Below, in pieces: positions 1 to 51,705 of a DNA stretch of 56,822 bases. The stretch spans positions 1 to 56,822 of the forward strand of contig NKIB01013469.1 in NCBI GenBank assembly GCA_002256025.1. Reading direction: 5' to 3'. The position numbers were made by a program, and so were the translations under genes. The stretch comes from Asterionella formosa (lineage: Eukaryota). The notes under the pieces were generated by a model. That model did not search any database. It saw nothing but the letters and a program-made list of their open reading frames with translations, and was not told the origin of the DNA. Position 1 is the stretch's first letter. Each line of letters begins with the position of its first letter.

Positions 1-2238
1 CTTGCTCGTCAGGAGGCATTGCGTTGGTAGGTTTAGTAGGAGTGTCGAATTCCTCGTCTATACCGGATCCGTCTGTGGTGAATTCGTCCATGTCCGCTGT
101 GGGTTTGGCATTTCCATGCCAGTCGGCACATTTAAGGTCTCTTGTGTTGAAGACCTTTTTCGTTGTAACGTTGTACATGCGGTAGGTATCACCGGCGTGG
201 TCATGGCTGTATCCAAGCATGACACATTTGACACTTTTTGGGGTTGTTTCTGCCTTGGCGTCCGAATCGTGGCCCACCCCACCCTGCCAAACTGAATCAG
301 GTGAGGATAAATCTTAGGCTGAAAGCCGTAGAAAAGCCAATCGGGGCATTTTCCTGTATTCGAGTTAGCAACAGAGTTTATTAGTCACGTGTGCATGTGG
401 ACACTCTCGGCCCACAGTAGCCCCTGGTATTCGTCTGACAATTTTGCGCTGATCATGGAGGCACATGCTCGGTCTGGTATCATCACAAATTTTCGTTCCA
501 CGACTCCATTCTGTTGAGGAGTATGGGGGGCAGTATACTCAATCTGAATACCCTGCGTGGTGCAGACGATACTTAGACTGGTCATGTTTTCACCGGCATT
601 GTCGCAGTGTAGGAAGCGTACAACATAGCCCGCCCGCTGACTTGAGTGTAGTCAATAGGGCATCCGCGATGCTCGCCAAATGACTTTTCTTGTTAACAAA
701 ATAACTCCATGCCTTGCCTGTGTACTGATCCATGAATAGAATCCAGTAGTTGCTTCCAATTTGAGATTTCTTGTAGGGACCTGAAATGTCCACGTACAAT
801 CGTTCAGCAGGAGTAGAGGCCTTGAGGGTCGTGACTTTAGGTACCGCTTTGGCCTTTGCCTTAGCTAGTGCGCAGCCTTCACACGACTGAATCTTGCCCG
901 TAGGTTCAATACCGAGGGACTTTAGCGTTGCGCGAAGGGATGCCTCGCTGATGTGGCCGTATTTGTCGTGGGCCTCGTTGATGTCAATTTGCATTGGTTT
1001 CTTGGTAGTTTTCGCCGTAGGAAGTTGCGTCACTGTCTTGGTATTTGTTGGAGTAGGATCAGGTGTACGGTTTGTTGTCAAGTCATGGATAGACAAGACC
1101 GTTTCGGATTGTAGGGTACGTTTTCCCTTGAAGTAGTAAAGGACGCCTTGATCCTCACAAGAAAAGGTTAGTTTGTTGTCGTACCCTTCCTTATGTAGAC
1201 TCAACTCAGACCCCTTCATGCGTGCCTTGCACCCTCCGTTCTTGACAAATTGCCCGATGCTGATGATATTCTTGTGGAAGTGTGGAGTGTAGAGTACCTT
1301 GCATAGTAACATGGAGCACGTCTTGTTGGTAATTAAAATGTCACCTCGTTTCATGCATACCACCTCTTTACCGTCACTGTCACCGACAATGACCGAGACG
1401 TTGACATTTTCGACATTTGTCATGTATTTGTCAGTCATTGTGATGTGCGTGGTAGCTCCAGTGTCCGCGAGCCAGTGCTCCGTTCCGTTGCTTGATGCAC
1501 AGTATTGGTCTTTGTACCACTCATCTTCCATTGTAGGGACGAAACACAAGCGTAGGATTTCTTCAGTAGGAGTCTCGGTATTATTCTGCGTCACGTCCAT
1601 GGTACCGGGGATATCATCCATCGCCTCCATACCAGTAATCTCCTCGCACATTCCGACGTACATTCCGGTTTCTTTTTTCTTCTCGCCGCGTGGTGCGCAT
1701 TTTGGTTCTGGGCAGTCTTTTGCAAGATGCCCAACATATTTATTGCAATTATAGCACTTTATCTCATTTTTTTGTTCCTACCGTTTGCATTCGTTCCGCT
1801 TGTGTTTGTTTTCGATCGGCACATGTCGGCCTTGTGCCCTTGTTTGCCACAGTTCTTGCAGATACCTTTGTATTTCTGCGTGAATAGGGCAATCTCCTTT
1901 GTGCTCTTCATGCCCTTTAGCTTTCATTTGTAGAATGCTCTGATCTTTCCTTTCAATTCATTGAGGCTGATTGTTGTCATGCCCTCGACGACTGTAACAA
2001 CCTCGCTGTACTCCACTGGAAGCTTGTCGATAACGTTCGCAATCACTTCCATTTCTTTCTTCTCAAATGATGGGTTGATCGCCATCATCTTGCTTTGTAT
2101 TAGATCGAGCTCAATGAACCATTCATCTGGATCAGAGGAGCTATTGTTCAGCTTGCATTTGTTGAAATCGCTTGCGAGCTGGATCAGGTCCGACACAGAA
2201 TGGGGGGCATACCTCGCTTCGAGGTTCTTCCACACCAT
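1..2238 (-). mobile_element. Decayed Ty1/copia LTR retrotransposon (gag, protease, integrase); runs off the left window edge
   Basis: Gag-like ORF 1924-2238 ends in a TGA that is probably a mutated CGA. Read-through gives zinc knuckles CKNCGKQGHKADMC and, after a frameshift, CYNCNKYVGHLAKDC. ORF 590-1663 has the protease motif WLADTGATTH, the pre-integrase HDKYGH...CEGC and the integrase start ERLYVDISGP. ORF 385-585 has EYTAPHTPQQNGVVER. The order PR-INT is copia-type. Confidence 0.93.
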
Positions 2239-10249: not shown

Positions 10250-10655
10250 TCTTCTTAGTAGTCTAATTTGGAAAAATATTTCTTCTTGGATTTTATGCGA
10301 CCTTCGTCCATTCGTGGTACCAGGTACCAGGTACTTAGAGTTCGCTTCACTGTGCTGAAGAACAATCGACATTCATGTTGCCGTCAGATTAAAAAATTAG
10401 ACAAGTAACCGCCGGTAGATATTTAATATACCGGGTATAATAATCCCGGTATAAATATTGCTAATGAGAACTGAAGTCGCTTTCAATTACCGGTACCTGG
10501 TACCGAGGTTGTCACTTGCTGATGTTTGTGTTCTTATCAAAATATTTGATATGGAGGAGGGAATGGAGGAAAATTCAAGGGAACAGAACCTCAATGCAAC
10601 AAGGTCTGATAAATTCGGGAGATTTAGCTTTGTTTTACTGAAGGTACAACATGAC

Positions 10656-10819
10656 CGAGGGTGGAGACTGTCTGCAAGTATTCTTGTGTTCGAGGCTTGG
10701 GAGGCACAAGTAGGTTGACTGAACAAGTGGCATCCCTGGTGCAACAAGAGGGTCAACCTGTGAGGGCCTCTCAAGTCGAGTACACAAGATTACGATACAG
10801 AATGCAGACTCCTCCCAAG
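10656..10819 (+). other. Rod-like imperfect hairpin H1 with 16-nt periodic C(G/A)AG mismatch motifs; outer arms extend to about 10500-10873
   Basis: Nested pairings TCTTGTGT/ACACAAGA, GCTTGGGAGGC/GCCTCTCAAGT and AGGTTGACT/GGTCAACCT, with apical GCATC-CCT-GGTGC. The outer pair is 10547-10566 against 10836-10856. Confidence 0.75.
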
Positions 10820-11198
10820 TAGGGTATTAACTAGGCCATTCCCTCTCCAACTATCATCTTGCCACTCAGGTACTTTTGAGTAATTTTTAGGCTCTAAGTA
10901 ATTTATATTTATGAGCAATATGGGCATATCAAATTTTTCAGCATTAAAAATGCAGATTTTAGCATGACAGCCAGAATAATGGTAATATGCATAGAAATGG
11001 GAAAACAAGTGTCAAACACACAATAATGATTATTAAATGCAAATCAATGATAATTGAACATGATGTTTGGAGCAACCAAAGTATGATATGCAATGTAATG
11101 AGTAGCGTGAAATGAGAAACAGAAAAATTTGTATTGGGTTAGAAATGAAGCGAAAAATAGGAGTTTCAGTGGAGATGTAGTATGCATTGTAGTACTTA

Positions 11199-12880
11199 GA
11201 GCATCGCCACCGCATCAACCAAATACCAAGCCAATTGAAGTTGCGGGTCATTACACGTCATGATCCGTTGTGTTGGTCGAAAAAGCAAAAATATTTTAGC
11301 CACCGCATCGACCAAGACCAAATATGCTTTGGTCTCGATCGAGGATGACCCCCTTATCGACCAAATATCAGGTATTTGGTCGATTAGACTCCAACCGTAG
11401 CCAAATAAAAGGAGCATTTCTATTGGTTTAGATTGTGGCTTGCGCCGGCAACATAACGTCAACTGTTTCATTGATCCACAAACGCTTACAATACACATTT
11501 CCCTTACTCTCTTGATGTAGACAAACAATAAACTTAAGTACAAAAACCTTTGAATAATACCGGCAGCTATCAATAAAATGTTGTCCTTCGAGTCTTTGGC
11601 GATCCCAATAAGATATCGTCATCCATTGTTGTCAAAGCAGGATGCTACATGAGAAGGAGCAGCAGGAGCAGCAGGAGCAGCAAGAACAACAGGAGCATCA
11701 GGAGCAGCAGGAGCAGCAGGAGCAGCAGGAGCAGGAGCAGCAGCCAACGAGGATGATTCATCGTCGGTTTCAGACAAAACCAAAGTTGGATTGTTTTGGC
11801 GCTGTCAAGAGCAACAATCGATAGCGATGTGCGAGTTTCGTCAAGGCAGCATTGTTCCTCATGTACCGTGATGTGTCATTGTTGGCAGACTGCTGCATGT
11901 CCCTGGCTAGTATCGATATCTTCTTCCCATGCATGCCATGGGTATATTGTGTAACAGTTTACTGTGTCAATGGTTGATCAATCAGCCGAAGGATTTAAAA
12001 AATGTATCCAAGAGAGTTGTGCCATTTAACGAAGGGTTTCACGCCAATAAAGGCAATGTCATTTAATGGAACAAAATGAAGGAGGGATTAGGTGTGATCC
12101 AATTGCATCTCAATAATTCAAGTGCTTCCAGTACTCCACTGTCCCACCTGTCATCCACCACTTATGATTTTGATGTAGTAGATGATTCCAAATGAAGGAA
12201 AAATAATATAGATTACATGTCAATGCTAGTATGATTGATTAGAAAGCTAGGCTATCACTCTAGCTAATTGGAAAAACGGAAGGTTTTTCTATTCTAGAAT
12301 ACCAATATACAAATGCATAGTCATATTAGTTTTTGATGGGCAGTTTAGATAGGCGTAGTACTAGCTGCTTAAGAATGAGGAATTTACAGGAAACATGGTG
12401 CTACAATTATTCAAAAAACTACAGGTACAGACAACCGGTAGCTAAGCAACTTCCTTTGATCCTCCGCCTCCTCCTTCGGTTGCCTTTTCTCGTTTTCTTC
12501 CTGTATATGTTTAACTGGTATGTACAGAAGTGTAGGAGCGGTTGTCATCTGATGAGTCGCTATCGTTGCTCATTTCATCAGGCAGATATGGATGAGTACC
12601 CTGGTATGCAACCACAAACCACGCAGTGCATCCCATCATTTTCTTATTGGTAGTAATCGGGTTTATTAATATAACGATACACATGAAAAATCATTCTAGT
12701 ACTATTTCTATTCGCTAAAAGTTTCGGCGCGAGATTTGACTATTCTAGGATTTGGTCGATGCGGTGGGAAAAAATATGAAAAATTCGACTATTGATAAAA
12801 AATTTCTCAACCAAGTGACGTGTATTGATATTTTCAACTGCAATTGGCTTTGGTATTTGGTCGATGCGGTGGCGATGCTC
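11199..12880. mobile_element. Non-autonomous PIF/Harbinger DNA transposon (1682 bp)
   Basis: Imperfect TIR GAGCATCGCCACCGCATC(A/G)ACCAAATACCAA(A)GCCAATTG(A/C)AGTTG. TTA target duplication at 11196-11198 and 12881-12883. Subterminal CCGCATCGACCAA repeats. An empty site with a single TTA/TAA lies at 32951-32953. No intact transposase. Confidence 0.93.
11657..11743 (+). repeat. (GAGCAGCAG)n low-complexity tandem repeat inside the Harbinger element
   Basis: About 9-10 imperfect 9-mers, reading EQQEQQ... Confidence 0.9.
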
Positions 12881-14144
12881 TTACACAGGCAACATTGACT
12901 TTCCATCACAAAAATCGAAGACCAAAATAATACAGAAAAAAAGGTGAACCCAACTGAGATCTGCATTGTTATGTAGTGTAGATGATCTAATTGCTGCAAC
13001 CATGCACATAGCTGTAGCCTGACACAAGCAACAGTCCTTCCTCCCACCAAACAACCCTGATCATTCCATTCCATTGTGAGTGAGCGTGATCGCCAGGCTG
13101 CTCCACTGCTATTGACACCCTCTAGCTGAAAAACGATACGTAGCTTGTGATACCACAAGCTCTGAGTAGAAAGGTAGCAAAGCGCGTTCGTACAAGAAAA
13201 GCATTGCTTGGAGGCAATATTGACATCACGCTCAATGACTATACAAATCAACAAATAAGATCAAAAACAGCACAATACATTTTCTAAGAGTGGGCATTGA
13301 TAAATACAATTGTCCTTGTGTAGATAGATACGAGAATCGAACCAAAATGACAGTACGGAAAGACAAACAACGACGAAAGCAATCAAAACGGACCATGGAA
13401 GCAATCAAATCGCAAATTTTACATGTAGTAACTACATTCCACATTCAGTATTTCACTGTTATACTCACCGATCCGCTCTAACTAGCAAAAACAACAAGCA
13501 GCAGACGATGGCATCAAAAGAAAGTCGAAAGGTCCCTGTTGTAAGCCCAAATTGAGCAACGGCTGGCAGGATAGAGGGAGAAGTATAATTGTGAGGACGA
13601 AATCGGGCATACGTAAAATCCATGGATATGTGAAGGATATAATTTAACATTCTGGTCTTGTAAAGATAATACCGAGTCTACAGCATAGATATTATGACAT
13701 ATTCAAAGTACGCATTAACGTTTAGCGTAAATCATGCATTGTTGTTTTGAGTACCATGCACATATGTAGGCTATATGACTAGAATATTCATTAAGCACAT
13801 TAATGACCGGAGCAAAAACTTGCCGCCAATTGCCGGAGTCACATTTCAGGCGAGGAGAAAAACGAGGTAAATACTAGATATATTTTAATCAAATTTGTAG
13901 ATTATACAAAATGGTTTCCTTAAGTTGACACCTTGCCGATTTCAGCAATACCAGGGCTGGAAAATGGAGGGGCAATTGGCATGAATTGTATTGCTGAGAT
14001 GTGAACATATGAAATATACAAAATATTTTTTAATAATGGGCAATACCGGACCCATTGCAAATTTCGATGCGAAGATAGGTAATATACAAAGTATGTTTTG
14101 TATGATGGGCTATAGCAAGCTAGAATTGATTTCCACTCAATGAG

Positions 14145-14436
14145 TGAGCAGTACTAGGTAAGCGAATGGAACAACAATAGCTAGTTTGTAAATTGCCTCA
14201 ACAATAGCCTTCTCAGTGGCTGCATGCCTTCTCGTGTACATGTGTACTCGTCTGGGATGTCGCTCGTAGGGTGACCTTCTCGCAGAGCCAGAGCGCCAGG
14301 GGCGCCACTCGTACTTTCTCATGCCACCCAGCCTCGAAGACATGTAAACTCGCAGGCATGAGACCACTTAGAGCGTGTATTGCCTTCAGCAATTCACAGC
14401 CTAGCTATCGGAGCGCTTTTCGCCACTACATTGCCC
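14145..14436 (-). other. Rod-like imperfect hairpin H2, an inverted homolog of H1
   Basis: Nested pairs ATAGCTAG/CTAGCTAT, AATTGC/GCAATT, CAATA/TATTG, AGTGG/CCACT, CATGCCT/AGGCATG, TACATGT/ACATGTA and CTGGG/CCCAG. CTCG (CGAG on -) occurs at 14231, 14247, 14263, 14279, 14308, 14333 and 14349. Confidence 0.75.
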
Positions 14437-14494
14437 TTTCAGCTAAAACTTGAAAACTGATTTCAGATAGTTTGTATGTTGAATGCACACTAGC

Positions 14495-15145
14495 CAATTG
14501 CCATTCATATAAAACATGCATTGTATATTTCATATGTTCAGTATTTGGAATTATACAATATCTTAAATTGCCCTTCATAGAAAACATATTTTCGATATTT
14601 CGTATGCTCCGTTTTTGGACTGCCAAACTACCATCAAAATTTTCAAATAGACCTTAGATTTGCCCGCCGAAATGGACTGCCGTTTATTTAAGGGAAATGG
14701 ATTATTGATATCTATTTACCCCTATGGACTGCTCTTTACGCAAGGAAAATGGACTGCCGAAATTGTTAGGGAGTAGGATGAGCTATGTGAAGGCACAAAA
14801 TGATGGTTTTCTGTAATGTGTTGATCATGGCAATTTTACTATTTACATCCCTGCTTTCTTCCAGCAGGCTCCGATGTATACAAACTCTGATCATTGATGT
14901 CTTAAGTAACGACCCTCAATCAAATGGATGTGGCTGGGACCGGTTGTTACATGATTCGACTTTTGGTGACACTTGCTTTGTTGCATGGGCACCCAGATTT
15001 TGGTTTTTTGTCAGACATGATCAGCCATTACACTTTAACTATAATGCTTTAGTATATTTTCTATGTGTCCTTCGCTATCTCAAATCAGATCTTGGCAGCA
15101 AATTTTAGTGCTCAATTGCTGGATTTTTCCGCTGTTCTAAAATAG
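14495..15145 (+). repeat. About 650-bp dispersed repeat (family C), direct-orientation sister at 51062-51705; probably a transposon end or non-autonomous element
   Basis: Colinear match from CAATTGCC to GCTGTTCTAAAATAG, with an internal repeated TGGACTGC(C) motif. Confidence 0.88.
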
Positions 15146-15220
15146 GCCAACAACATGACTTGCAATGCACCATGCTCCATTTGAGGTAGAACTTCTGATG
15201 CATGCCCTGCACCAAATAAA

Positions 15221-15422
15221 ATGGAATCATGAGACTTTCGAATATTTTTGAAAATGAGCAGATTTTTCCATTTGATTTTCACTTCACAGAGCTAAGAAAT
15301 GCTTTGATGAGAATGACATTGATGGAATCATGAGACTTTCGAATATTTTTGAAAATGAGCAGATTTTTCCATTTGATTTTCACTTCACAGAGCTAAGAAA
15401 TGCTTTGATGAGAATGACATTG
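15221..15422 (+). repeat. Perfect 101-bp tandem duplication
   Basis: 15221-15321 is identical to 15322-15422. Confidence 0.95.
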
Positions 15423-15941
15423 ATCCCATTGTACTTCGAGTCTTCTGTGTTTGTGTGTTGAAAAAGATTTGGGTTATTTGCATGCTTCTATTGAGAAATT
15501 GAAATAACTCCACCTGCTGCTGCAGTATACTGAGGATATGATTGCTCAGCCATTTAACCATTGAATTATAAGCTTCAATCTGTTGTGGTGTTCCTGTTTT
15601 GTTTTCAGCTTTCACCTGTTATCTTCTTTCTCTTGAATTTGACTCAAGTGTTCATCATGGACATCAATATTGCCTCCTATTACTACAACAGATGCATCTG
15701 TCCCTTCAGAATGAAATGCAGGATGTCTACAGGCTCCAGGCATTCTTGTTGTCAAAAGCACAAGTTGTCATGAAAAATAAGTTGTTGTGGTATGGTGATT
15801 GTGACTTTCCTATTCATGTGAGTCAGGTACCTTAGTACTCCAGAGTAGTCTACAGCACTAACACCAGAGGGAGTTGTGTTGAAGACGGTTTTACTATGAG
15901 GGAAAAACTGCTAAACTTCTCATACTGCAGCGTCCACGTGC

Positions 15942-16312
15942 CAGGTACGCCCATGTACCAGTACATATATTTGTTCAACAACCACGGCCGGTTGGTATCA
16001 TTGCACTCCTACCGGTACCAGGTACCTGCTACCAGTAGTCAACATTCTACCACAGTACCGGTACATACATACAGGTAGAATCCTGCCTTTGGTATTCTGA
16101 CGTGCATGTTGGCGACTCCTTGATCTTGCGTCCTTGCATGCTCCAACGATTACAATTATCACCCACCTATGAAAGTTTTTGCTCTTGACAGACATTCATA
16201 ACAAACTTTGAGGAGGGGTGACGTGCGTGTTTGTTTGTCGTCGTTGGTACCTGGTACCAGGTACTCCCTGCTTACCTGGGCGCTACCTGGTATGCCTGGT
16301 ACCATCAGGTAC
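15942..16312. promoter_or_regulatory. TACCAGG/CCTGGTA/ACCGGT motif cluster upstream of the glycine cleavage H gene
   Basis: Many copies, including the 18-bp palindrome GTACCTGGTACCAGGTAC at 16247-16264. A regulatory role is inferred from position only. Confidence 0.4.
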
Positions 16313-24559: not shown

Positions 24560-24917
24560 GTCTGTACTAAATCTATGAGGCATTTTGTCAGGATAAGAGT
24601 GTTACTCACATTCTCATCAACCAAATATTGAAAGATGACAGTGGTGGTGGGCATCCAGCACAACTACACCAGCCATGTTTAGCTAGATTATACAGATACT
24701 ACTAAATAGTAACAAAGATGCTTACTATATTAAATTCTACTTTCATTTTCAATGTAAATTTTTATTTCATTGCCTGCTTACCCAGTATATACATCAGACC
24801 GGTTAAATGTGCATTACACATGACAAAGCTAGCAAAATCCAGCAGTACCAGGGACTGGTAGCAGGTACCGGCAGTACTTCATTAAAACAGCACCCTGGTC
24901 ATGAGAGGTACCTGGTA

Positions 24918-25179
24918 CTGGTACCACCTAAAAACTGAGAGTCAACATTTCATAACTCCTTCTTCTGACTAAAATTATATAAGTTTATTAAATGATAAAA
25001 TTTGAAACAAGTACGAACTTTATTGTAGTCAATAGAATGAGGATAGCTATCATTTAATCAGTTCTGAAGTAGAACATACAGCTATGGAGATTTAAGCCAT
25101 TTAACTTTATCAATGTTGACTCATAACATTGTCTTTCAGTATCTTCCAAACATCAACTCTCAGTTTTTAGGTGGTACTG
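24918..25179. mobile_element. Tc1/mariner-type MITE (about 260 bp)
   Basis: TIR GTACCACCTAAAAACTGAGAGT (24921-24942) against ACTCTCAGTTTTTAGGTGGTAC (25156-25177). The right end reads ...ACTG|TA, and a TA lies at 24916-24917. Confidence 0.75.
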
Positions 25180-27335: not shown

Positions 27336-27930
27336 TACCAGGTACCATGTACTATAGGGGGATACCAGTATTCAGGTCTGATGATGGTCTTGCTCAACAT
27401 CATGAACTCCGGCGTGACATCACGATTCTTCCCAACAAGCGTACCTGGTACCGTACCTGGCAAGCTGCTGTCATTTTGCTTGAACTATCATGTTAATCTG
27501 GGATAAAAGAAAACTAAAACTTTCGTTTCAGTTAACTTGTTGTACCAGGTACCTGGTACCCTTAACGTTCCACCACTATCGCCTCATTTCGGACATGTCA
27601 TCACACCAGGTAACTGGTACCAGGTACCATACCGGGAACCGGAAGCTACATGGGGAGTACCTGTTACCAGGTAGGTATTTGTCCCTGGTGCTACGGTACC
27701 ATTACCAGTACCAGTAGTCAGTCTACACCAAGGTACCAGGGAGTACGCGCAAGTTGCTTGCCGTAATTGTGCTGAAGCTAAATATGTATCTATCTTTATC
27801 CCATATTAAATTGTTGATTTAAGCAAAATGACCGCAACTTGCAGGGACCTGGTACGGGTACGTACTGGCTGTTATAAAAAATTATTATTCTTTCTGTTTT
27901 TCGATAAAAGAATACATAGTACCAGGTACT
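27336..27930. promoter_or_regulatory. Dense TACCAGG/CCTGGTA motif cluster
   Basis: More than 10 copies, including the palindrome GTACCAGGTACCTGGTAC at 27542-27559. It lies upstream of the small membrane protein gene. Confidence 0.4.
27749..27842. repeat. About 94-bp MITE-like element with GCAAGTTGC/GCAACTTGC inverted ends; sister at 4418-4500
   Basis: A 9-bp terminal inverted repeat and internal similarity to 4418-4500. Confidence 0.6.
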
Positions 27931-32104: not shown

Positions 32105-33297
32105 AGTGTGCATTCAATAAGATAAAGATGAATTTGGCTGTGCCCATTTATTGGTTTTTTCATGGAAACAATTGGGTCAGATATTGCCCATGATTAAAAT
32201 AAATTTTTTATATTTCAAATGTTCGCATATTGGCAATACAGTTTATGCCAATTGCCCCTTGGTTTTCCAGCCCTGTGAATGCCAAAATTAGCAGGGGGTC
32301 TGCTTAAGGAAATCATTTTATATACTCTACAGATTTGATTAACATATATCTAGTATTTACTCTGTTTTGCTCATCTCCTGAAAAATGACTTCGGAAATTC
32401 ACCTTTTGCCATGCCGTTCATTGTCCATCATGACCAGTCTGAAGCAACACAAGTTCATTGATGAGGCCTGTAGTGATTTGTCATCAAACAGATGTAGTTG
32501 GTTGTTGGATTGCTTTTGTTTTCACATGGGAAAAATTTAGTCGATTTATCCATATTTCTTCAGACAAAAAATGATTCCAATGTATCTGACGTTGGCAGCA
32601 AGTTTTTGCTTTGGTCATTTATGTGCTTAATGGATATTCTACTCATTTAGCCTCCATACATGCATGCTACTCAAGCAAACAACCATGCATGGTTTGAGCT
32701 AAAATTTAATGCTTACTTTAAACATGTTGTTATAATATGCAATGGAATGATCAGGGTTGTTTGGTGGGAGGAATGACGACTGTGGGCGGAAGGATTGCTA
32801 CTTGTGTCAGGCTACTACAACTAGGTGCATGGTTGCAACAAGCAGATCATCTACACTACATAACAATGCAGATCTCAGCCAGTTGGGTTCACCTTCTTTC
32901 CTGTATTATTTTGATCTTCAATGTGTGATGGAAAGTCAATGTTGCCTGTGTAAGTACTACAATGCATACAACATCTCCACTGAAACTCCTATTTTTCGCT
33001 TCAATTCTAACCCAAAACAATTTTTTCTATTTCTCATTTTATGCTATTCATTACATTTCATGTCATACTATGGTTGCTCCAAACATCATGTTCAATTTTC
33101 ATTGATATTTTATGTTACAATCATTCTCATGTGTTTGATGCTTGTTTTACCATTTCTATGCATATTACCGTTATTCTGGCTGCCATGCCAAAATCTGCAA
33201 TTTTAATTCCAAAAAATTTGATATGCCCCATATTGCCCCAAAATAAAATTACTTAAAAGTACCAGAATGGCAAGAAGATACTAGCTGGAGCGGGAAT
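32105..33297. repeat. Non-coding dispersed repeat family, copy B (inverted relative to copy A); contains the empty Harbinger site
   Basis: Reverse-complement alignment to 10836-14491, with an extra segment of about 190 bp near 32400-32590. Confidence 0.85.
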
Positions 33298-33317: not shown

Positions 33318-35854
33318 CGGGTTCTTTCCGGCTCGACAGGCTGATATCAGTCTCCCTTTGCGGCCCGATAATAAAGCCTTAACATCTCCTTCCTTTAATT
33401 TTATATACATCGCTGGATAGTAAAAGGGCTACCGGTATATATGTTAAATAGAGCGAAAGAATTGAAATTTGAACTAGTAATATTTAGTTGTGAGCCAGTC
33501 ACAACATGAAAAATTCCTCAGACACCACATATCAGTCTAGACTGGAAGGACTCAAAACTGCTTCCATGGAATGATGTAAACAACAGTCAACACAACGATA
33601 GACAACCATGGATCATATACAACATGTCTGAGTCTTTCTTGTGCAGTCTACACATGTACATTGGGGGTGGGAACTGTCAACATCCACAACCTCTGTCCCG
33701 AAAAATTTCTAGCCTTTGGGTAGCCGGAAAACTCTGTGCTCAGCATTTTTTGTCAATCTCGATGACCTTCGAGGCGATTCTTCTTCTTTGTAATAAGAAT
33801 TACATACCAATGCCTCTGCCAAAAGCTTGCGAAAACCGAGCATGCCATCAACCTCCTCCTTGCAGAAGTGTTGATATGCAAGCATGGCATTTACTTCTGT
33901 GACTGACAAAATGATGCGAACACTCTATTTGGCCACTATTTCTTCGCCCATAACACATCCAAACTGATCGGGGAATGCCTTTTGCATTATGATCGTCAAC
34001 AGCATGCCGAAACTTGTAGTGGTCGTGGATAACCTCAGTATATGTAACCTGTTTTTTGCGCTTTGTTCCTTGTACCAACCAATTTTTCATTGAAGCCTTG
34101 CCAATTGGTTCTAAGGTCCCAAACGTAGACATTAGAGACATCACGTAGTCTGGTTCCTTCATACAATACATGTGGAAGAGGATGTTGTCTAGTTTTCCTG
34201 GCCAGGCATCTGCAAAGCCACACTCAAGGCTTTCGAAGTGTGTCTTGATTTCTTCACCCCGGATGTATTTTGGCCAGAAGCGGCATTTCTTTATCAGTGC
34301 TGATGCATACAATCCCTTCTTCCTTAATTCAATGATTCCCTTTAGTACACAAAATCCACTGTCAAGAATAACTATCCTTGCTGACCCTCAAATCGATTTT
34401 GAGAGTCGAAGCAATAGCCCATCAGTCTTCCCACCAAGATCATCAAACTCTTGATATTTTCGTGATCGGGGAGCATCTTTTCCCTTGACTATTTCCATTG
34501 CAAACATGATTCCTGTATTGCCACAGCAAACTGTGTGGTATTCATTTCCGAATGACCAAGGCTTTCGGAGAGCAAACATGAATCCAGGACAGGTAGTATG
34601 CATGTTTGTCCATGTAGACATTGATTTGTCTAAACATACAATGTGTCCTGGCTTAAAATTATTTTGCATGTTTTCATTCCATGCTTCAATCATTTCCCTT
34701 ACTACATGAAAGCGGTTCGGATAATCAGGTGCTGGCCGAATTGTATAGCATATAGCCTTGTGAATTGAATTGAATCGATCACGAGACATGAGGTGATTTA
34801 GCCGAAATGAGGCATTGTCGAAAATATTGGTAGGCGCAACTGACCAAAAATCATGCTGTTTCGTTCCCTGCGTTGTTGCCATTAAAAACCATATTCCAAT
34901 CCATCTGAGTAGCTCACCATAGGTAACAGATTTGCCCTCTATCTTTAGATTAATGATAAACAAAACATTATCTTTCAAGAATTCAGAAGGAAAAAAAAAT
35001 TCGAACAATTGGAAGACAGTCGGTTTCAAATGAGTTGGAAATGATGAAAGTCTTGGATTGCAATTTGATGCACCCGTCAGTCTCCTGTCGCAAATTCCTG
35101 AGTGTCCCCACCCATCCTCAAACAAATTTTTTATTAATTCCTTGGGAGGAACAACATTTTCAGGTGCTCGTGCATTGTAATCATCAATAGCAACAAATCC
35201 AGCTGCAAGGGCAACGTCATCAGCATCATAAATTGTGCCAGTATGCACATTCGACAAGTTCGAAGAGCACGGAAGGCATCTCTTCATCTTCTACTGCCTC
35301 CTCAGGTACATCATCGCCTTTGCCATAGTAAAAGTAGTCTAAATCACCCTCAAAAATGATCTTGAAGTGCTTTTCAAGAGCATACAGCTCAGTCGTATCA
35401 GCATCATCCACAGTCCCGGGAGCTGTGACCACAATGGCCATCACCTCTTTACCTCTAATTTTCTTGAGCTCCCTCCGCAGAACTGTTATTCCTTCAAGTT
35501 GATGACCTTTTCCAATGTTCAGATGATGATTTCGGACCCACAGTGAGGGGTGAATGTACTTGGATAGGCATGAAATGACGGCACCTTTGTCCATGGTCAG
35601 CCAATTTTCGTTTTCGCGCCATCCCGCACAAACCTTTTTGAGATTTTTTCGGCTGGTAGGCTTCTCATGTATCTGAAATTATTTTAACCTATAAGCTTAT
35701 TGTCATGTATACCTCCAGAAACCTACAGTTCTGTAGGTTTAGATTAACTTTTCAGAAATGAAATATCCGTTGAATTGATCTAGTGGCAAGGGATTGAAAA
35801 TCCAGACTGAATCCAGTCTATTAGACTGAAATCAGCCTAGCCGGAAGGAATCCG
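33318..35854 (-). mobile_element. Full-length but decayed piggyBac-superfamily DNA transposon with ATAT flanks
   Basis: Transposase fragments at 35594-35226, 35287-34388 (MSRDRF, CLDKSMSTW, RKPW.FGNEYH), read-through to ILDSGF, and 34312-33848 (AVDDHN), with a Cys-rich tail near 33570-33660. Imperfect TIR CGG(G/A)TTC(T/C)TTCCGGCT..AGGCTGAT(A/T)TCAGTCT. ATAT at 33314-33317 and 35855-35858. Confidence 0.9.
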
Positions 35855-39194: not shown

Positions 39195-39380
39195 GTACCT
39201 TGGGAGTACCGTACTACGGCTGTGTCTGGCCTGACAAGGTGTACCTGCTGGGAATCAGTGCCAGGTGCCAGGTACCGGTACCTGGTACCAGGGTGTACTT
39301 GTAGAATGTGGATACACCGTCATTCTTTCTGAAAAATGTCATACCGTGACCAGTTACCGGTACATGGTACCAGGTACCAC
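39195..39380. promoter_or_regulatory. TACCAGG/CCTGGTA/ACCGGT cluster in the divergent Asteroid-like/BEACH promoter
   Basis: Palindrome CCAGGTACCGGTACCTGG at 39268-39285 plus further copies. Confidence 0.4.
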
Positions 39381-39644: not shown

Positions 39645-42600
39645 ATGACATGGCTCACAGGCAGCAGCAGCATGAGCATGACTAGCATCGAAAGCAACAG
39701 CAGCATGAACACTAAGCCGCCTCTGAAAGAAGCTGTCAAGGTCCTTCATCCTCCCTCGCATCACGTGGAAGTCAGGTATCGTAACAGGTTTTCACAACTC
39801 TTGCTGGAACATGGAGAGCAACATCTTCAGGACTGGGCTGTCGTAGCCTCTAGTTCCATTGTAAACGAAGCCACAGCTGTAACCAATTCCAAAAAGACGG
39901 AATGGAACAAATCTGCAAAGCAGGGACGCAAAAAGACGTATTCGAATTCGACTGGAAGCGACAACCTTGGCTCGTTGATTATGCGGAAACTGGAAGGAAG
40001 ACTTCACCTCTGTTCGAGGTCTATTGTCTTCGAGCCTCTGGAAACTTCGAGAGGCATCATTCGATGTCCCTTTCAGAGAATGGAAAACAGTCCACGCGAG
40101 ACAATCTCCATCCCTGCACCGGTAAACGCAAATACCGCTGCAACCCCCAACAATTCCCTTAAACGTGAGACGTCTACTTCCGGCGCACTCTTCGGGTCAT
40201 ATGAAACGATTGCGTCCTTGACGATTGAATTTATTGCTACAAGGCATTTAATTATGAAGGAAAATAATGTTATCGGACCCTTTGAATCGATCGAATCGCC
40301 GGCCAAGTTTCAATTTACCTTTTTGCATTCATGTCCGGAGAATTTTGTGGACCTTTGTCAGGTGAGAGCGACTTATGTTTATATTGATTTTGTGGAACTA
40401 GTTTTGATTTCTAAAACATGCTTATTTTACCAGAAATTACATGATCTAGTTAACAACAGCAGCCGACGCCAATCCTTCTTCAGCACACCAGAGTTGGACG
40501 AAATACGGAAACCCATGTTGCAGCGCCCGTTTGATCCCACCAATTTTGTGGATATAAGAGAAAAACCCCTCACCAGTAATTTGAGATGTACGCTGGTTTC
40601 ACCATTGCAACAAAAAGCGGGTTGCGCCATTGTCACGTCGGAACGGCTATACTTTCAACCTTCGGCAGGTGTCTTGTCGCCAACCACAACAAGAGCTACG
40701 TCGTGGCTGCTGGCAGATCTTGTCGCCATTGCTCGCCGGTATAATGGATTGAAGTATAGTGCGTTGGAGATGTATTGGAAGGACGGAACGTCTGTTTTAC
40801 TTGCATATGAACGGCAGCGGGAACGAGAAAAGGTCGTTCGAGTGTTGCCTAAATATTTGTGGTGTCATACCGATCGGGACTTTGTTTTCTCTGCCCATCA
40901 CGAGTGGCAGCAAGGTAGCTTGTCCAACTATGAATATTTACTCGCTTTGAACTCGGCCGCAGGAAGAACCTTTCAGGATTTGTCACGTTATCCTGTGTTT
41001 CCTTGGGTCATTGCGGATTACAAATCAGCCTCCTTGGACCTCCACAAGGAAAGCACTTTTCGAGATTTGTCCAAACCCATGGGTGCCATTAATAAAGAGC
41101 GTCTAGAATACTTTCAAAGTCGTCTCCTGGGAATGCAAGATATGGAAGAGCCGTTTCTATATGGGACACATTACTCAGCACCCGGCTACATTCTTTACTA
41201 CTTGGTGCGAAGCATGCCGGAGCACATGCTTTGCTTGCAAAATGGAAAATTCGATTCTCCTGACCGCATGTTCTACTCCATTGCTCATTGCTATTCCTGT
41301 GCTCTGACTAATCATGCTGATGTCAAGGAGTTGATTCCTGAATTTTACGCACTCAACGACTTTGACTTTCTTATCAATGCCAGATCCCTTCAGTTGGGAG
41401 CAACACAGAATGGAGATCGAGTAAATGATGTCGACTTACCAAATTGGGCAAGATCACCCAGAGATTTTTTGAAAAAGAATCGCAAGGCTTTAGAGTCTGA
41501 CATTTGCACACGAGGACTACCGGCTTGGATTGATTTAATTTTTGGTTTCAAATCCAGAGGAAGTGCGGCGATGGAGGCCGACAATTTGTTTCACAATAAT
41601 GCATATTTGGGACCTGCTTCTTTGGAACGTATGGCAGAGGAGGAACGAATGCAGGCAGAGTTGCAAGCGGTGGAGTTTGGGATTGTCCCAGATCAGCTTT
41701 TTGAAAAGGCTCATCCTGGGCGGACAGAAATAGGCAGCGATTTCATCTTGGCGAACTTGGGCAAGGTCGAATTTGAATTAGAGAGCGATGGCCTAACAGA
41801 CGGAGAATCTTCAAAACAAGGGGAGGCATGGGAACTGTTGGACCCGCCTTCGATTGGGAGTCAGGACGACCGTATAAGTGATCGAATGGAATCGAACGAT
41901 AGAACCGGTAATATTGGTGCCAAGGAGTCGAATCGCGGTATCGGGTTCGGGACTGCAGCTCTAGCGGGCTCAGCAAAAATGACAGCCTTCAAGGAGAAAA
42001 TCTCTCCAATGTCAAGCCAACATGCGGTCACACCAGATAAGAAAACAGCACTCGAACCCTTGGCGACACCTGGTGGGAAAGCTAGAGCATCATGGGCTCC
42101 AGGGGCCAATTCGGTCTTGCCAAGTTCGGACTTGTCGTGGAATGAAAGTCCTGCTCTCGCATACAGACCCCAAGTAATCCCGGATACAACTAACGAGCTG
42201 ATGCAGCCCTCGCTTGGCGATCCGGTAGCAATTGAAGTCGCCTCTATGCATATGCTACCGGATCAAGGATCCATGGAATCTCAGTCACGTTCGTTGCCCT
42301 TGAGTGGTAGTGGCGACTTTAGACGGCCTGGTATTGCGTCGTTTGGAAGTGGCGAGCAAATGGGAATGAAATGTACAAATAAATCAAGTAGAATTCCCGA
42401 GTCTGCGAATCAGACCAGCGACTTGGCTAAGGGATGGGACATGAAAAAGATTGAAACTGAAAGGGTTCATAGCGATGCTGTTACTGGCTGTTCCATCCTG
42501 CTTCAGCAAGGACCACAAAATACATCGTTCTTAACTACCGTCTCGTTGGATGCAACTTTATTGGTGCAAAATGTCTCACTTTGCGAATCAGATGTTGACG

Positions 42601-45697: not shown

Positions 45698-46338
45698 CAT
45701 TGCATGTCTCCGTAGTGAATCGAAATTGAGATTTGCCGCAATGGCCTTTTCCTTTTCGGAGCAACTACAAATAGTCTACAGCGATAACTCTAGCAAGTAC
45801 AATATAGAAAAAGAAGGAAAGGATGAGTAGCTGACAACAATTGAATCCGTAAATTCGTTAAGAAACAGCTGTTGCATATTTTAACATTGCATGTCGCCGT
45901 AGTGAGTCAAAATTCAATTTGGAGCAGCTACAAATAGTCTACAGCGATAACTCGTCTAGCAAGTACAATATAGAAAAAGAAGGAAAGGATGAGTAGCTGA
46001 CAACAATTGAATCCGTAAATTCGTTAAGAAACAGCTGTTGCATATTTTAACCTTGCATAACGCCGTAGTGAGTCAAAATTGAGATGTGCCACAATGCCCA
46101 TCTCCTTTTTGGAGCGGATACAAATATTCTAAAGCGATAACTCCAACAAGTACAATATAGAAAAAAGCAGAGGAGGAGCAGCTGTCAACGATTGATTTCG
46201 TAAATATGTTTAGAAACAGCTGTTGCATATTGTAACATTCAATGGATGTCGCCATAGTGAGTCAAAATTGAGATGTGCCGGAATGGCCTTCTCCGTTTCG
46301 GAGCAGCTACAAAAATTCTAAAGCGATAACTTTAGCAA
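45698..46338 (+). repeat. Tandem array of about 165-190-bp units (about 3.5 copies)
   Basis: Recurrent CCGTAGTGAGTCAAAATT...GGAGCAGCTACAAA...GCGATAACTC...CAAGTACAATATAGAAAAA...AGAAACAGCTGTTGCATATT. Confidence 0.92.
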
Positions 46339-47039
46339 TTAAACTGGAGTGAAGTTCAATTGTCTTGCAACATCTTTCATTGACCGTTTGAAATACTCAT
46401 ATTCACTCCTAGTTTCATTTGCCACCTCGATTCTTTCATCTGTCGTCTCCACTGATTCTTCGTCAAATTTGCTTTTCTTGAACCTGTAAAAGTCCCTGTG
46501 CAACTTTGCGTAAGCTTCTTCTTAGCCACTTTGTATTTCCTCTCGCCCTTTGCTGCAACCTCCTCAAATTTTTTAATGTAGCTCTCATCATTCTTCATCC
46601 CTTCTTTAATTTCATCTCCAAAAATGTCTAGGGGTGCAATGTTCTGATCAATACAAGCCTTATAAATTTCACTCTTTTTCTTCATCCAAAGCTCCACATA
46701 CATCTTTCTCTTCATCTGTTGGAAGTACCAATCTGTGGCACCCTTGACTTGGTCTGGGGGGAAAGTGAATAATCACGTTCAAACTCTTTGCACTCTTTGA
46801 ACTCTTTGCACTCTTAGTACTACCAGTTGTTATCGTTGAAGTTCTTCCTGAAATATCTTGTGGAGTCTATCCACTGATGGAAGGCCGGAGTTGTGGTTAC
46901 TGGAAGAGAAATGGCCACTAGATCATTACGAACTCTAATGGCAGGCACACTGTTGTTCCCTGGCGTAACTTCAATGAAAATTTCCATCAGTTAGTCAATA
47001 TTTTCCATGAACATCAGTTCAACAATTCAACTTTGTTTA

Positions 47040-50000
47040 TTCCCTTTAATGTGTACTCTTTTTGGATTTCCTTGATAACTGCTAGAGGATCTTTGGAAAA
47101 CACCAAAATATCATCCACATATGTAACGATGTATTCATAATGATCTCCACAGTCTTTGATCCATAAGTCAGTATCTGCATATGATGGGCAATACCCCATG
47201 GTAACAAGTTTGGCCGATAAATTTTCATGGAATCTTGCTGAGCTATTATTACGTAAACCATATAGCCCCTTTTCAATTATGAGGTTTGCGCCAGGGTTTT
47301 GGAATTCTTGTCCTGCAACGATGTACACCTTCTCCCTTGTTTTTCCACATAAGAAGGCGTTCCCAATATCAGCAGCACAAATGTCTAGGTGGTTTATGGC
47401 AGCAATTAGGAATCCCATAAGAACAGTGTCCATCCTCCCAACAACTCCTGAGTATATGTCTTCTTTGGGTGGATCGGTTTGATGTCCTCCTACACCTTGT
47501 CTTGCTTTCCTCCTTAGATCAAATTTGACGTCGAATATTATTTGTTATGGGATTCGTTTGTACCCTACTAGTAATTCATGTTCTGACACCTCTCGAAACG
47601 TATGGTATTCATTGATCTGTTTCAATTCCATGTCTATGGCGGTCCTCCATAAGTTATCATGATTCATCTCATCTAGATGTAATGCATGTTTTCCTGATGA
47701 AGGGACTTCCACTCCAAACTTGTATCTTGGTTCATGACGAGTTGCTTTCATGATTTGTATTATTGCATGCAAGTTTGCGTTGGGTTGTTCAAGGTATTCT
47801 TTCACCTGGTACTATGTTGCCTGTAGGATCATGCTTCTTGGATCTGTGGTTAAGGAATTTTAAGGGTGTCCACATGTAATCATCATACTCTTGTGTCGCC
47901 AGTTTGTCAATGTTTCGGTGATATTCTTGTAACTGTTTGATTTTTTTATGTCATGTACTTGTTTTTCTTGTTGCTTTCCATTGCAAACCTCACCTCGTGT
48001 AGTTATTTGTCTGTAGATGTCAGTAGATGTCACCTTCATAGTTGCTAAAATACTCATCTTGTTTATTTCTTCTTTGTCATCCTGTGGGCGATTCACAGCC
48101 ATCATAATATAATGAGGATTACTAGGCGTGCGTTTACTAATTGACTTCCTAATGTTTGGTATCTCTTGTTACACATGTGCCACCTCCCCTTTCTCTTGTT
48201 CTCTAGTAATCTCCCCTTTCGCTTGTACTGTGTGTATTGGACTCTCATTTGTTACTTTTGGTATCTCTTGTTCTGCTTCTACCTCTTGTTCTGTATGTAA
48301 TACCTCCCCTGTCTCCTGATATCTAACCTCCACTGTCCCTTGTTTTCTAACCTCCCCTGTCTCTTGTAGTACTGTGTGTATTGGACACTCACGCACGCGT
48401 TATTGCTCCCCTCGACGTTGGTATTGTAACGCCAGGTGCCCTTTTGCGATGGCGGGAAATGGTGGGTTCGACATGTGTGGGATTGGAGTAGAACTGTAAA
48501 GCAGGTAAGGGGGCAAGAGGAGTTGTGTTGGCTACCGCAGGGTCGATCATGGGATTAAACTGTATGCGGTGATTGGGGTGGGCCAGGTCACATGGTTGGA
48601 AAACACTGCGGTGTAGCACCTGTTGTGTATGGTCAGTGAGGATTTTGTTGGTCAGGATGTCACCCACATAGTCTGCAATTCCAACCCAGTACCCGGGCTT
48701 TTCTTTAGTGTCTGGATATACCTCTTGGTAGTCTAAGTAATACAATTTCTCATAAAAGTGGAAGTGTAAGAATTTTGAGATATCAGGGGTGCCACCATGG
48801 CGTAGTGTAAGGGGGATCGCCCAATTGAGGGTCTCATCAGCACTATGATTGTGTAAAGCAGCAAGGTACTGTGATTCTAGCAACCAAAGCATAGGAGGTG
48901 CTCCTGTTCGATCTAGTAGCAATTGGGTGTGTTGCTTCAACCATTTAACTGCCTGTAACTCAGCCATATTCTGCTGTGAATGGTATGGTTCCGTATATTC
49001 ATCAACAATCAGATACAAACGGTTGAGTTGTTGGAACCGGAAGCCAGATTGGACACGTGAATTATCTCGACGTAAAATGGTGGGGCAACCTTCATGCAGG
49101 AGGAAATCATTGTTGGCATCGGGGGCACCGTTTTCGGAAGGCATACCATATACATTGATAACATGGGACGTGATTCCATAGAAGACCTGTGCACAAGTAG
49201 CACCAGTAATGTCGCGGCAGTTGGCAAAGACTGTATCAGTTGCTACCTTCTCTTTGAGGCGTGGCCGATTAGCTTGAGGAAAGCGGGATTTAATGTCATG
49301 GCGTCGAAGGGGATAGCGGTATATAGCTTTAGCCATCAATAATAAGCATGGGTCACTGTAGTGTGAGTTAGGATCCCAATTGGAGTCTGCTGTGATATCG
49401 AAGGGTGTTAATGATGCTAATTCTTGTTCTGTTGGTAACCGGTGCCTGAATGTTATAAGACCTCCATTAATGATAAAAGAGATGTATACATGCTGAGGAC
49501 GGGGAAGAAAACACTGTCCTCTATTCCTGCCTGGTACACTTGTTGGGTGCTTGGTGGAAATAGAATCAACAATGCAGTCATGCTCTTGTAATTGAAACTC
49601 TGAGAGGAGGGTAGTAGGACTGCCTTGATTATATTATAAACATCTTCATGCACACGGAGAAGTTATTTGTGCCCTTTTTTCTCCACCACTGTTACCGCAC
49701 TGACAATGGGCATTACAGTTTTCCGGGAAGCTTTTGCATCAAACCCAACAAGGATGGCTTTTCGTGATGTATGTGACTCAATATGCTATCCGTCTCCAAT
49801 GACACAAGTATCTGCTGCATTGTCTGCTATACTTAGAAAAGTATGTTCATTCAGTAATGATAGTAAACATCTGCGGTTGCATATGGTGGTATCCATGATT
49901 GCAATGTCTCGAGTAGTAGTATGCACTGTATAGATGGAGCGTATACCATCACATAGGTTTTCCTTGTGTTGTAACAACTCAGTAGCTAAGTAAGGAAATA

Positions 50001-51050: not shown

Positions 51051-51061
51051 TCCGCGGCAGA

Positions 51062-51705
51062 CAATTGCCCTGCTTGATATACAACATATTATATTTATTT
51101 CATATCTTAAAAAAGTTTTTGGATTACTATATCCTGCAACTACCCTTCATATAAAACATGTTTTGGATATTTCATATGCTCCGTTTTTGGACTTCCAAAC
51201 TACCTTCAAATTTTCATTAGCTCCTAGATTTGCCTGCTAAAATGGACTGCTGTTTATGTAAGGGAAATGGATTACTGATATCTGTTGCCCCCTATGGACT
51301 GATGTTTACTTAAGGAAAACGGACTGCCGAAATTGTAAGGAGTAGGATGAGCTATGTGAAGGCATGAAATGATGGTTTTCTGTAATGTGTTGATGGCAAT
51401 TCCACTATTTACATCCCTGCTATCTTCCAGCAGGCTCCGATGTATAAAAACTCTGATCATTGATGTCTCAAGTACCAACTCTTCATCAAATGGATGTGGC
51501 TGGTTGTTGGATGATACAACTTTTGGTGACACTTGCTTTGTTGCATGGGTGCCAAAATTTTGGTATTTTTGTCAGACATGATCAACTGTTAAATTTTAAC
51601 TATAATGCTTTGGTATTTTTCTACGTGTCCTACATTATCTCAAATCAGATCTTGGCAGCAAATTTTAGTGCTCAATTGATGGCTTTTTCCGCTGTTCTAA
51701 AATAG
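51062..51705 (+). repeat. Family C dispersed repeat, second copy, abutting the 5'-broken gag of the CoDi-like element
   Basis: Colinear with 14495-15145, with the same sharp end GCTGTTCTAAAATAG. Confidence 0.88.

Follow-up and report, generated by a model that had tools for sequence, protein, structure and literature searches.

Two related rod hairpins with a 16-nt CGAG period in a transposon nest of the diatom Asterionella formosa

The window analysed here is a stretch of 56,822 nucleotides (nt) of Asterionella formosa, the forward strand of contig NKIB01013469.1. It is a gene-dense nuclear region of a freshwater diatom, in which the long open reading frames (ORFs) encode MCM10, a BEACH-domain protein, Codanin-1, an AP medium subunit, GcvH, HisG and others. 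Within it lie two rod-shaped hairpins, H1 on the plus strand and H2 on the minus strand, which are the subject of this study. Both are inside a transposon nest, with Copia, piggyBac-like and TTA-duplicating elements nearby. The analysis covers this single window together with contigs of public sequencing runs that contain it, about 20 environmental runs labelled as algae, freshwater, lake or river metagenomes; X1 is a DNA run, and X12 and X19 are metatranscriptome runs from two studies. The hairpin features are:

10656..10822, plus strand: H1, a rod hairpin of five CGAG-type levels closed by an apical CCT loop (fold and motif positions).
10638..10837, plus strand: H1 repeat unit, a CpG-depleted, old member of the family with low copy number (contig ends, CpG content, contig count).
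14140..14445, minus strand: H2, a rod hairpin belonging to a high-copy subfamily (fold and contig counts).
14215..14373, minus strand: the CGAG-bearing core of H2 (motif positions and forced folds).

The left boundary of the H1 repeat unit is placed at 10638, where three RNA-library contigs start to match the window, with unlike sequence upstream; repeat R, described below, begins at 10838.

In H1 and in H2 the same strand carries a CGAG-type motif on both arms, and the motifs are arranged in opposed pairs, or levels. These are 10656/10816, 10675/10793, 10691/10777, 10707/10761 and 10724/10745 in H1, and 14370/14215 (decayed), 14352/14234, 14336/14250, 14321/14266 and 14311/14282 in H2. Read on the plus strand, H1 has three CGAG (10656, 10691, 10777), five CAAG (10675, 10707, 10724, 10745, 10816), one TGAG (10761) and one CGAT (10793). 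H2, read on the minus strand, has seven CGAG (14352, 14336, 14311, 14282, 14266, 14250, 14234), two TGAG (14321, 14215) and one TAAG (14370). Off-period matches are found at 10772 and 10785 in H1 and at 14200 in H2. Re-examination reproduced the hairpin coordinates and motif positions of a preliminary description made from the sequence; every site in its motif list was correct, and it had overlooked 14311 and the outermost level of each hairpin (10656/10816 and 14370/14215).

Successive motifs are spaced by exactly 16 nt in 9 of 16 cases and by 15-17 nt in 11 of 16. The background density of CGAG in the window is 2.3-2.6 per kb. H2 holds seven CGAG within 125 nt, where 0.33 would be expected (P 6e-8, or 6e-5 after multiplying by the number of such intervals), and H1 holds nine CGAG, CAAG or TGAG within 122 nt, where 1.3 would be expected (P 9e-6). 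Chains of at least three motifs at 15-17 nt occur five times in the window, and four of these are the four arms of H1 and H2; both chains of four motifs fall inside the hairpins, and none was seen in 50 shuffles. The 16-nt period, which had been put forward for checking, is therefore far beyond chance in enrichment and in chains. The fifth chain (40015-40051, plus strand) consists of three TTCGAG motifs 16-17 nt apart inside the BEACH-domain ORF; it has no rod fold (z -1.5) and was set aside as a coincidence.

Folded with RNA parameters, H1 reaches -79.3 kcal/mol (z -5.7) and H2 -119.6 kcal/mol (z -4.15), and the complementary strands fold worse by 11 and 18 kcal/mol, respectively. With DNA parameters the motif-bearing strand is better than its complement by about 5 kcal/mol in both copies. 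The ladder of H1 is clean, with 12-bp stems of 9-10 Watson-Crick pairs between the blocks, and forcing all five levels into register costs 3.5 kcal/mol (-76.5 kcal/mol, against a minimum free energy (MFE) of -80.0 kcal/mol). In H2, forcing the outer CGAG/CGAG levels 1-2 costs 1.3 kcal/mol, which is near-optimal. The proposal that each CGAG faces another CGAG thus holds for the five levels of H1 and for two of the four CGAG levels of H2, and fails for the inner two, which are considered below. By a strict count on the unconstrained MFE structures each hairpin has one perfect GA/GA 2x2 loop, the remaining levels being decayed or shifted; 5'-CGAG-3' stands opposite 5'-CGAG-3' at or near the MFE at 10691/10777 in H1 and at 14352/14234 and 14336/14250 in H2. 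By sequence and fold, these are CGAG blocks within a helix, whose sheared geometry is predicted. That tandem G·A pairs are stable in both DNA and RNA, as had been asserted, agrees with published measurements: the RNA tandem mismatch 5'CGAG3'/3'GAGC5' contributes -0.69 or -1.74 kcal/mol (PMC2724281), and DNA 'CGAG blocks' are formed by G:C and sheared G:A pairs (PMC10085684).

In each copy and at each level, the arms mirror each other all around the block, with the exception of its two central bases. Decay of a perfect palindrome was considered as a source of this pattern and rejected. An inverted repeat would put CTCG opposite CGAG, and since two adjacent transversions would then be needed at every level, the pattern is not the decay product of a perfect palindrome. 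The common ancestor of the two hairpins therefore carried non-canonical, stabilising rungs in a ladder, which is hard to explain without some constraint at the level of pairing.

Comparison of the two sequences indicates a homology that is real but modest, between diverged copies, as the preliminary description had held. Within the window, BLAST aligns two colinear segments of H1 and H2, one of 38 nt at 79% identity (E 0.016) and one of 61 nt at 69% (E 0.7), and an apical 5-bp stem and CCT loop are common to both; a MAFFT alignment of the two misplaces the apex. Ten motif sites deviate from CGAG (seven in H1, three in H2), nine of them by CpG transitions, and the third motif base, A, is intact at 20 of 20 sites. 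The observed/expected ratio of CpG is 0.32 in H1, 0.70 in H2, 0.27 in the second copy of repeat R and 0.88-0.94 in three genes. These values are best read as an old copy (H1) and a younger copy (H2) of one family. Given this inequality of age (CpG 0.32 versus 0.70; 6 versus 84-98 contigs, see below), H1 and H2 are unlikely to be the two ends of one insertion. In Phaeodactylum, small RNAs of 25-30 nt map over transposons, which are methylated, and methylation is triggered by inverted-repeat RNAs (PMC4247016). By analogy, the CpG depletion in H1 and R fits the transposon methylation described there for another diatom. Given that the motifs decay by CpG transitions in single insertions, individual copies decay unprotected, and any selection would act on the propagating lineage, as for transposons.

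The interval from about 10520 to 15300 is highly repeated in X1. Three positions in H2 (14190, 14207 and 14222) are each covered by 84-98 distinct X1 contigs, most of which differ from the window at those bases. In the bin 14208-14424 depth sums to about 370,000, whereas the neighbouring single-copy gene has 700-1,180, contig depth summed in X1 being distinct from true copy number. H1 is low-copy, with six X1 contigs at 10733, most carrying a base that restores a C-G pair. In other copies of H2 a subrepeat is joined to the hairpin in varied ways (joints 14032>14174 and 14076>14174). Loose ends and joints of this kind reveal many dispersed copies with varied flanks for H2, while for H1 there are only the six contigs at 10733; the earlier view of a dispersed, presumably mobile repeat agrees with the many X1 contigs at the three H2 positions. 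Metatranscriptome contigs also cover the hairpins (X12 record 15, 591 nt, 14040-14624; X19 record 18, 10391-10702). Such contigs attest presence only and carry no information on transcription, strand, ends or processing, given that RNA libraries can hold DNA; equally, regions lacking RNA-contig cover are not evidence of silence.

Searches for further relatives returned none. BLAST at word size 7 found no third copy in the window. A 19-base pattern from the 5' arm of H2, chosen to avoid CGAG, matched four loci in a metagenome scan, all of them chance matches of 23-25 nt, and no locus in viral contigs. A pattern from the 3' arm matched one locus in prokaryote genome contigs (a metagenome-assembled genome of Clostridia), which was left unaligned and taken as a chance match. 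A 76-amino-acid ORF across H2, searched for protein relatives that might be mis-called copies, had no matches. The generic pattern of four CGAG at 16 nt matched at least 120 loci in viral contigs, and among the 120 listed, all of which were folded, there was no comparable rod. G·A blocks were most numerous in three of these: L099 and L104 have blocks 4-8 nt apart and are apparently short repeats, judging from the fold output, and L119 is a 16-nt tandem satellite by sequence. The other 117 listed have 0-3 G·A blocks each.

The surroundings of the hairpins consist of further repeats and transposon remnants:

10838..14057, plus strand: repeat R copy A, non-coding, between the hairpins (81-83% identity in four blocks to 33297-32173; very high X1 depth).
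32173..33297, minus strand: repeat R copy B, without a hairpin on either side, about 550 nt downstream of piggyBac-like ORFs.
11199..12881, unstranded: non-coding 1.68-kb element nested in R, with 47-nt terminal inverted repeats and a TTA target duplication.
13998..14113, plus strand: two tandem subrepeats of about 68 nt, left of H2, common with the 3' end of R (self-comparison).
14497..14609, minus strand: two inverted subrepeats of the same kind, right of H2 (self-comparison).
14492..15145, plus strand: repeat S, beginning with the inverted subrepeats directly after H2 (second copy at 51059-51705, 85% over 665 nt).
593-1777, minus strand: Copia-type retrotransposon fragment (gag zinc knuckle, Pol_BBD and GAG-pre-integrase matches).
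47017-47544, minus strand: Copia-type retrotransposon fragment (RVT_2 match).
33851-35290, minus strand: piggyBac-like ORF pair in one frame with a stop between (DDE_Tnp_1_7, E 1.5e-30 and 1.1e-11), probably a dead element.

Repeat R has ends of its own. Its 5' end reads CCATTCCC in copy A and CAATTCCC in copy B, its 3' end is formed by subrepeats closing with GGGCAAT, and end-like motifs are present at 10838 and near 14045-14113; no conserved ORF or protein was found in it. Repeat S starts with CAATTGCC. H2 and the two subrepeats on either side of it add up to a palindrome some 610 nt long. Of the four boundaries of the two hairpins, three lie only a few bases from the outer end of another element (the 5' end of R at 10838, the 3' end of R near 14113 and the 5' end of S at 14494), and no hairpin was found beside R copy B or the second copy of S. 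Given that R has its own end motifs and that copy B lacks hairpins, the hairpins are not shown to be termini of R. This, with the differing ages of H1 and H2, runs counter to the initial suggestion that they lie near both ends of one dispersed element. The empty site of the 1.68-kb element is seen in R copy B (near 32951-32954) and in X1 and X2 contigs that join 11198 to 12882. Its 3-bp TTA duplication recalls PIF/Harbinger-type elements, an assignment that we make presumptively.

Elsewhere in the window, an intron of 79 nt with GT..AG ends is borne out by an RNA contig (joint 9772>9852), and the closest named relatives of one enzyme come from diatoms and reach at most 74% identity. At 15221-15424 two tandem copies of a unit of about 101 nt are 100% identical, the duplication being either very recent or an assembly artefact. 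A tandem array in an AT-rich stretch at 45700-46331 is built of roughly 160-220-nt units that are about 82% identical. Allowing up to one mismatch, the window contains 44 matches to the near-palindrome TACCWGGTACC, against 0.47 expected in shuffles (for example 10316-10333, 10492-10504, 16014-16033, 16246-16303, 24857-24919, 27336-27928 and 39264-39378). Judged by eye on the ORF map these appear clustered between genes, and in this diatom the motif may serve as a promoter element or be bound by a transcription factor.

The hairpins themselves match no known RNA family. In Rfam, the whole window has no match at the gathering score, and the interval 10450-14700 has only two chance-level matches to small nucleolar RNAs (E 2.9 and 4.2); no tRNA-like gene was found. 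The inverted arms make up most of the unit, which has no coding capacity, and the ORFs across the hairpins have no Pfam family or protein relatives. Of the kinds of encoded protein that had been recommended for a search, no integrase or HUH domain is present in the 28 ORFs scanned, and the piggyBac-like ORFs are without hairpins. No report of a periodic CGAG/CGAG ladder was found in open-access text. The preliminary description had likewise recognised no known family.

These data allow us to propose, with a confidence that is evenly balanced, that the hairpins represent a non-coding, foldback- or MITE-like (miniature inverted-repeat transposable element) non-autonomous repeat, with many nuclear copies in this diatom, whose ancestor had five CGAG-facing-CGAG sites and which is handled as a folded strand. 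In this model the ancestral sites would have lain about 16 nt apart, as 12-bp stems plus a 4-nt block. In the folded single strand each site would give C-G, G·A, A·G and G-C, with the mismatch stabilising the helix. Individual insertions would decay, and because they are probably methylated the CpG of the block would become TpG or CpA, as in H1. The active lineage would keep its blocks because the element goes through a folded, single-stranded state, either as DNA during mobilisation or replication, or as a transcript. We reason that this folded strand, DNA or RNA alike, would be the functional form. The blocks might then act as evenly spaced recognition marks on alternate helix faces, presumably for a protein partner, or might keep the hairpin stable while never leaving more than about 14 perfectly paired base pairs in a row.

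Several results weigh against this proposal. The family is known here from two readable copies, and the comparison between them speaks for little covariation. Among 27 register-safe pairs without indels, 14 are unchanged, 2 are changed on one side and still pair, 3 have double changes that still pair and 8 are broken in one copy. One of the three double changes is a double CpG transition, which a palindrome could produce without selection. The double changes first noticed between the copies do therefore exist, but with three compensatory and eight disrupted pairs of 27, structure selection is not demonstrated between the two copies, and neither is the structure-selected scaffold drawn from them. 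H1 has seven G:T wobbles against two A·C mismatches; in H2 there are nine against eleven, lacking the wobble excess expected for a selected strand. Refolding with both parameter sets, the check first suggested, gave the strong RNA z-scores reported above, but under DNA parameters H2 gains no significant advantage over shuffles (z -1.6). Forcing all four CGAG levels of H2 costs 12.4 kcal/mol, and the inner two otherwise do not face each other, because the 5' arm has 6 nt opposite 12 nt on the 3' arm; the young copy, of the high-copy type, is consequently not a clean ladder. The copy-number evidence is weakened in that X1 summed depth may include other organisms. Family boundaries are only approximate (10638/10837; 14066-14609), with no recognisable target-site duplication there, and within the window neither an autonomous partner whose ends match nor a hairpin homologue around the piggyBac-like ORFs at 33851-35290 was found.

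Other explanations account for parts of the same evidence. The RNA may itself be the product, with hairpin-RNA genes of host or transposon origin feeding a small-RNA and DNA-methylation pathway and the G·A blocks shaping dicing or loading; we consider this possible but doubtful. The strongest z-scores come with RNA parameters, and contigs of two metatranscriptome runs cover the hairpins (14040-14624; 10391-10702), although such libraries may contain DNA. The H2 bin in X19 has a depth of 1,573, compared with 3-380 in bins of the R body that are deeper in DNA, which is a hint only, as contig depth is unfit for ranking regions against each other. A precedent is given in PMC4247016, noted above, where inverted-repeat RNAs of Phaeodactylum trigger methylation and small RNAs cover transposons. 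The lack of wobble excess in H2, the free decay of H1 and the lack of an Rfam match argue against such a product. It is also conceivable, if unlikely, that the period is read on double-stranded DNA, with CGAG as a short binding site that recurs every 16 bp, always in the same orientation, for a transposase or host protein, and the hairpin as a by-product of long inverted arms. In inverted-repeat transposons, short motifs are commonly found at regular intervals in subterminal positions, the H2 fold does not stand out with DNA parameters, and co-varying arms could be explained if both bind one protein. Sites at the two ends would, however, normally be mirrored, whereas here everything is mirrored save two central bases at exactly paired positions, an arrangement predicted by a single-strand pairing rule and not by a duplex-binding rule.

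That the hairpins are landing sites seems improbable to us. Transposons with CAATTSCC-type ends (R and S) would insert at the hairpin base, as some bacterial insertion sequences do at palindromic repeats, and the three of four boundaries that adjoin R or S ends within a few bases are what suggests it; yet neither R nor S has a hairpin next to its second copy, no target duplication is resolved, and a sample of three junctions, all from a single transposon nest, is anecdotal. That two unrelated palindromes share these motifs by coincidence is very improbable. In favour of chance, BLAST detects little similarity between H1 and H2 (E 0.016 and 0.7), but the enrichment (P 6e-8 and 9e-6), the lack of 4-motif chains in 50 shuffles, and the colinear block order with a common apex all oppose it.

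The rods, their 16-nt period, the asymmetry between strands, the repeated nature of the DNA and the CpG-type decay are all established, and together they make a genuine and unusual pattern; mobility, selection of the single-stranded form and any protein partner are inferences. If the G·A ladder were conserved across hundreds of copies, the foldback-like family proposed here would be a eukaryotic repeat family selected as a folded single strand, and would offer a simple sequence code (CGAG opposite CGAG, 16-nt period) for seeking a binding protein or an unusual mobilisation route. If not, it would be one more decaying foldback repeat with a curious ancestor. A bolder and rather unlikely extension is that the rods are a new kind of structured single-stranded element, in which sheared G·A rungs every 1.5 helical turns are read by a dedicated protein. 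This protein would be an enzyme moving the element via a folded single-stranded intermediate, or a factor assembling on the transcript, and the result would be a eukaryotic transposon family defined by a non-canonical base-pair code and not by duplex end sequences. Diatom DNA transposons and small-RNA pathways are little studied.

Among known systems, foldback elements and MITEs are the closest in general form. Like them, the hairpin family is non-coding, multi-copy, lies among transposons and consists mostly of two inverted arms, with outer arms of tandem subrepeats and CpG depletion in old copies. It differs from them in that the arms are non-complementary at evenly spaced 2-base positions, with the same strand motif on both arms; the target duplication, defined termini and autonomous partner of such elements were not found here. 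The initial analogy to attC sites and HUH substrates holds in part of the design: attC and IS200/IS605-type substrates are likewise imperfect hairpins in which mismatches on one strand carry information. Those substrates, however, are tens of nucleotides long, bacterial and located beside an integrase or HUH gene, whereas H1 and H2 are eukaryotic rods of 170-300 nt with no such domain in the ORFs scanned, and the analogy is not sustained. MITE-derived microRNA hairpins of the Made1/mir-548 type share the transposon-derived palindrome able to fold as RNA, but are without periodic non-canonical pairs. At the level of the block itself the correspondence is exact. The RNA mismatch 5'CGAG3'/3'GAGC5' is the identical motif and, according to PMC2724281, the third most frequent tandem mismatch in that paper's RNA structure database. 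In known RNAs this CGAG tandem mismatch is single, whereas in H1 and H2 it forms a periodic ladder. The DNA hairpins of the AUTS2 promoter, as described in PMC10085684, use the same four-base unit, self-pairing via G:C and sheared G:A pairs; their blocks are contiguous within a short CGAG repeat, whereas those of H1 and H2 are single, separated by unrelated 12-bp stems and distributed along a rod of 170-300 nt.

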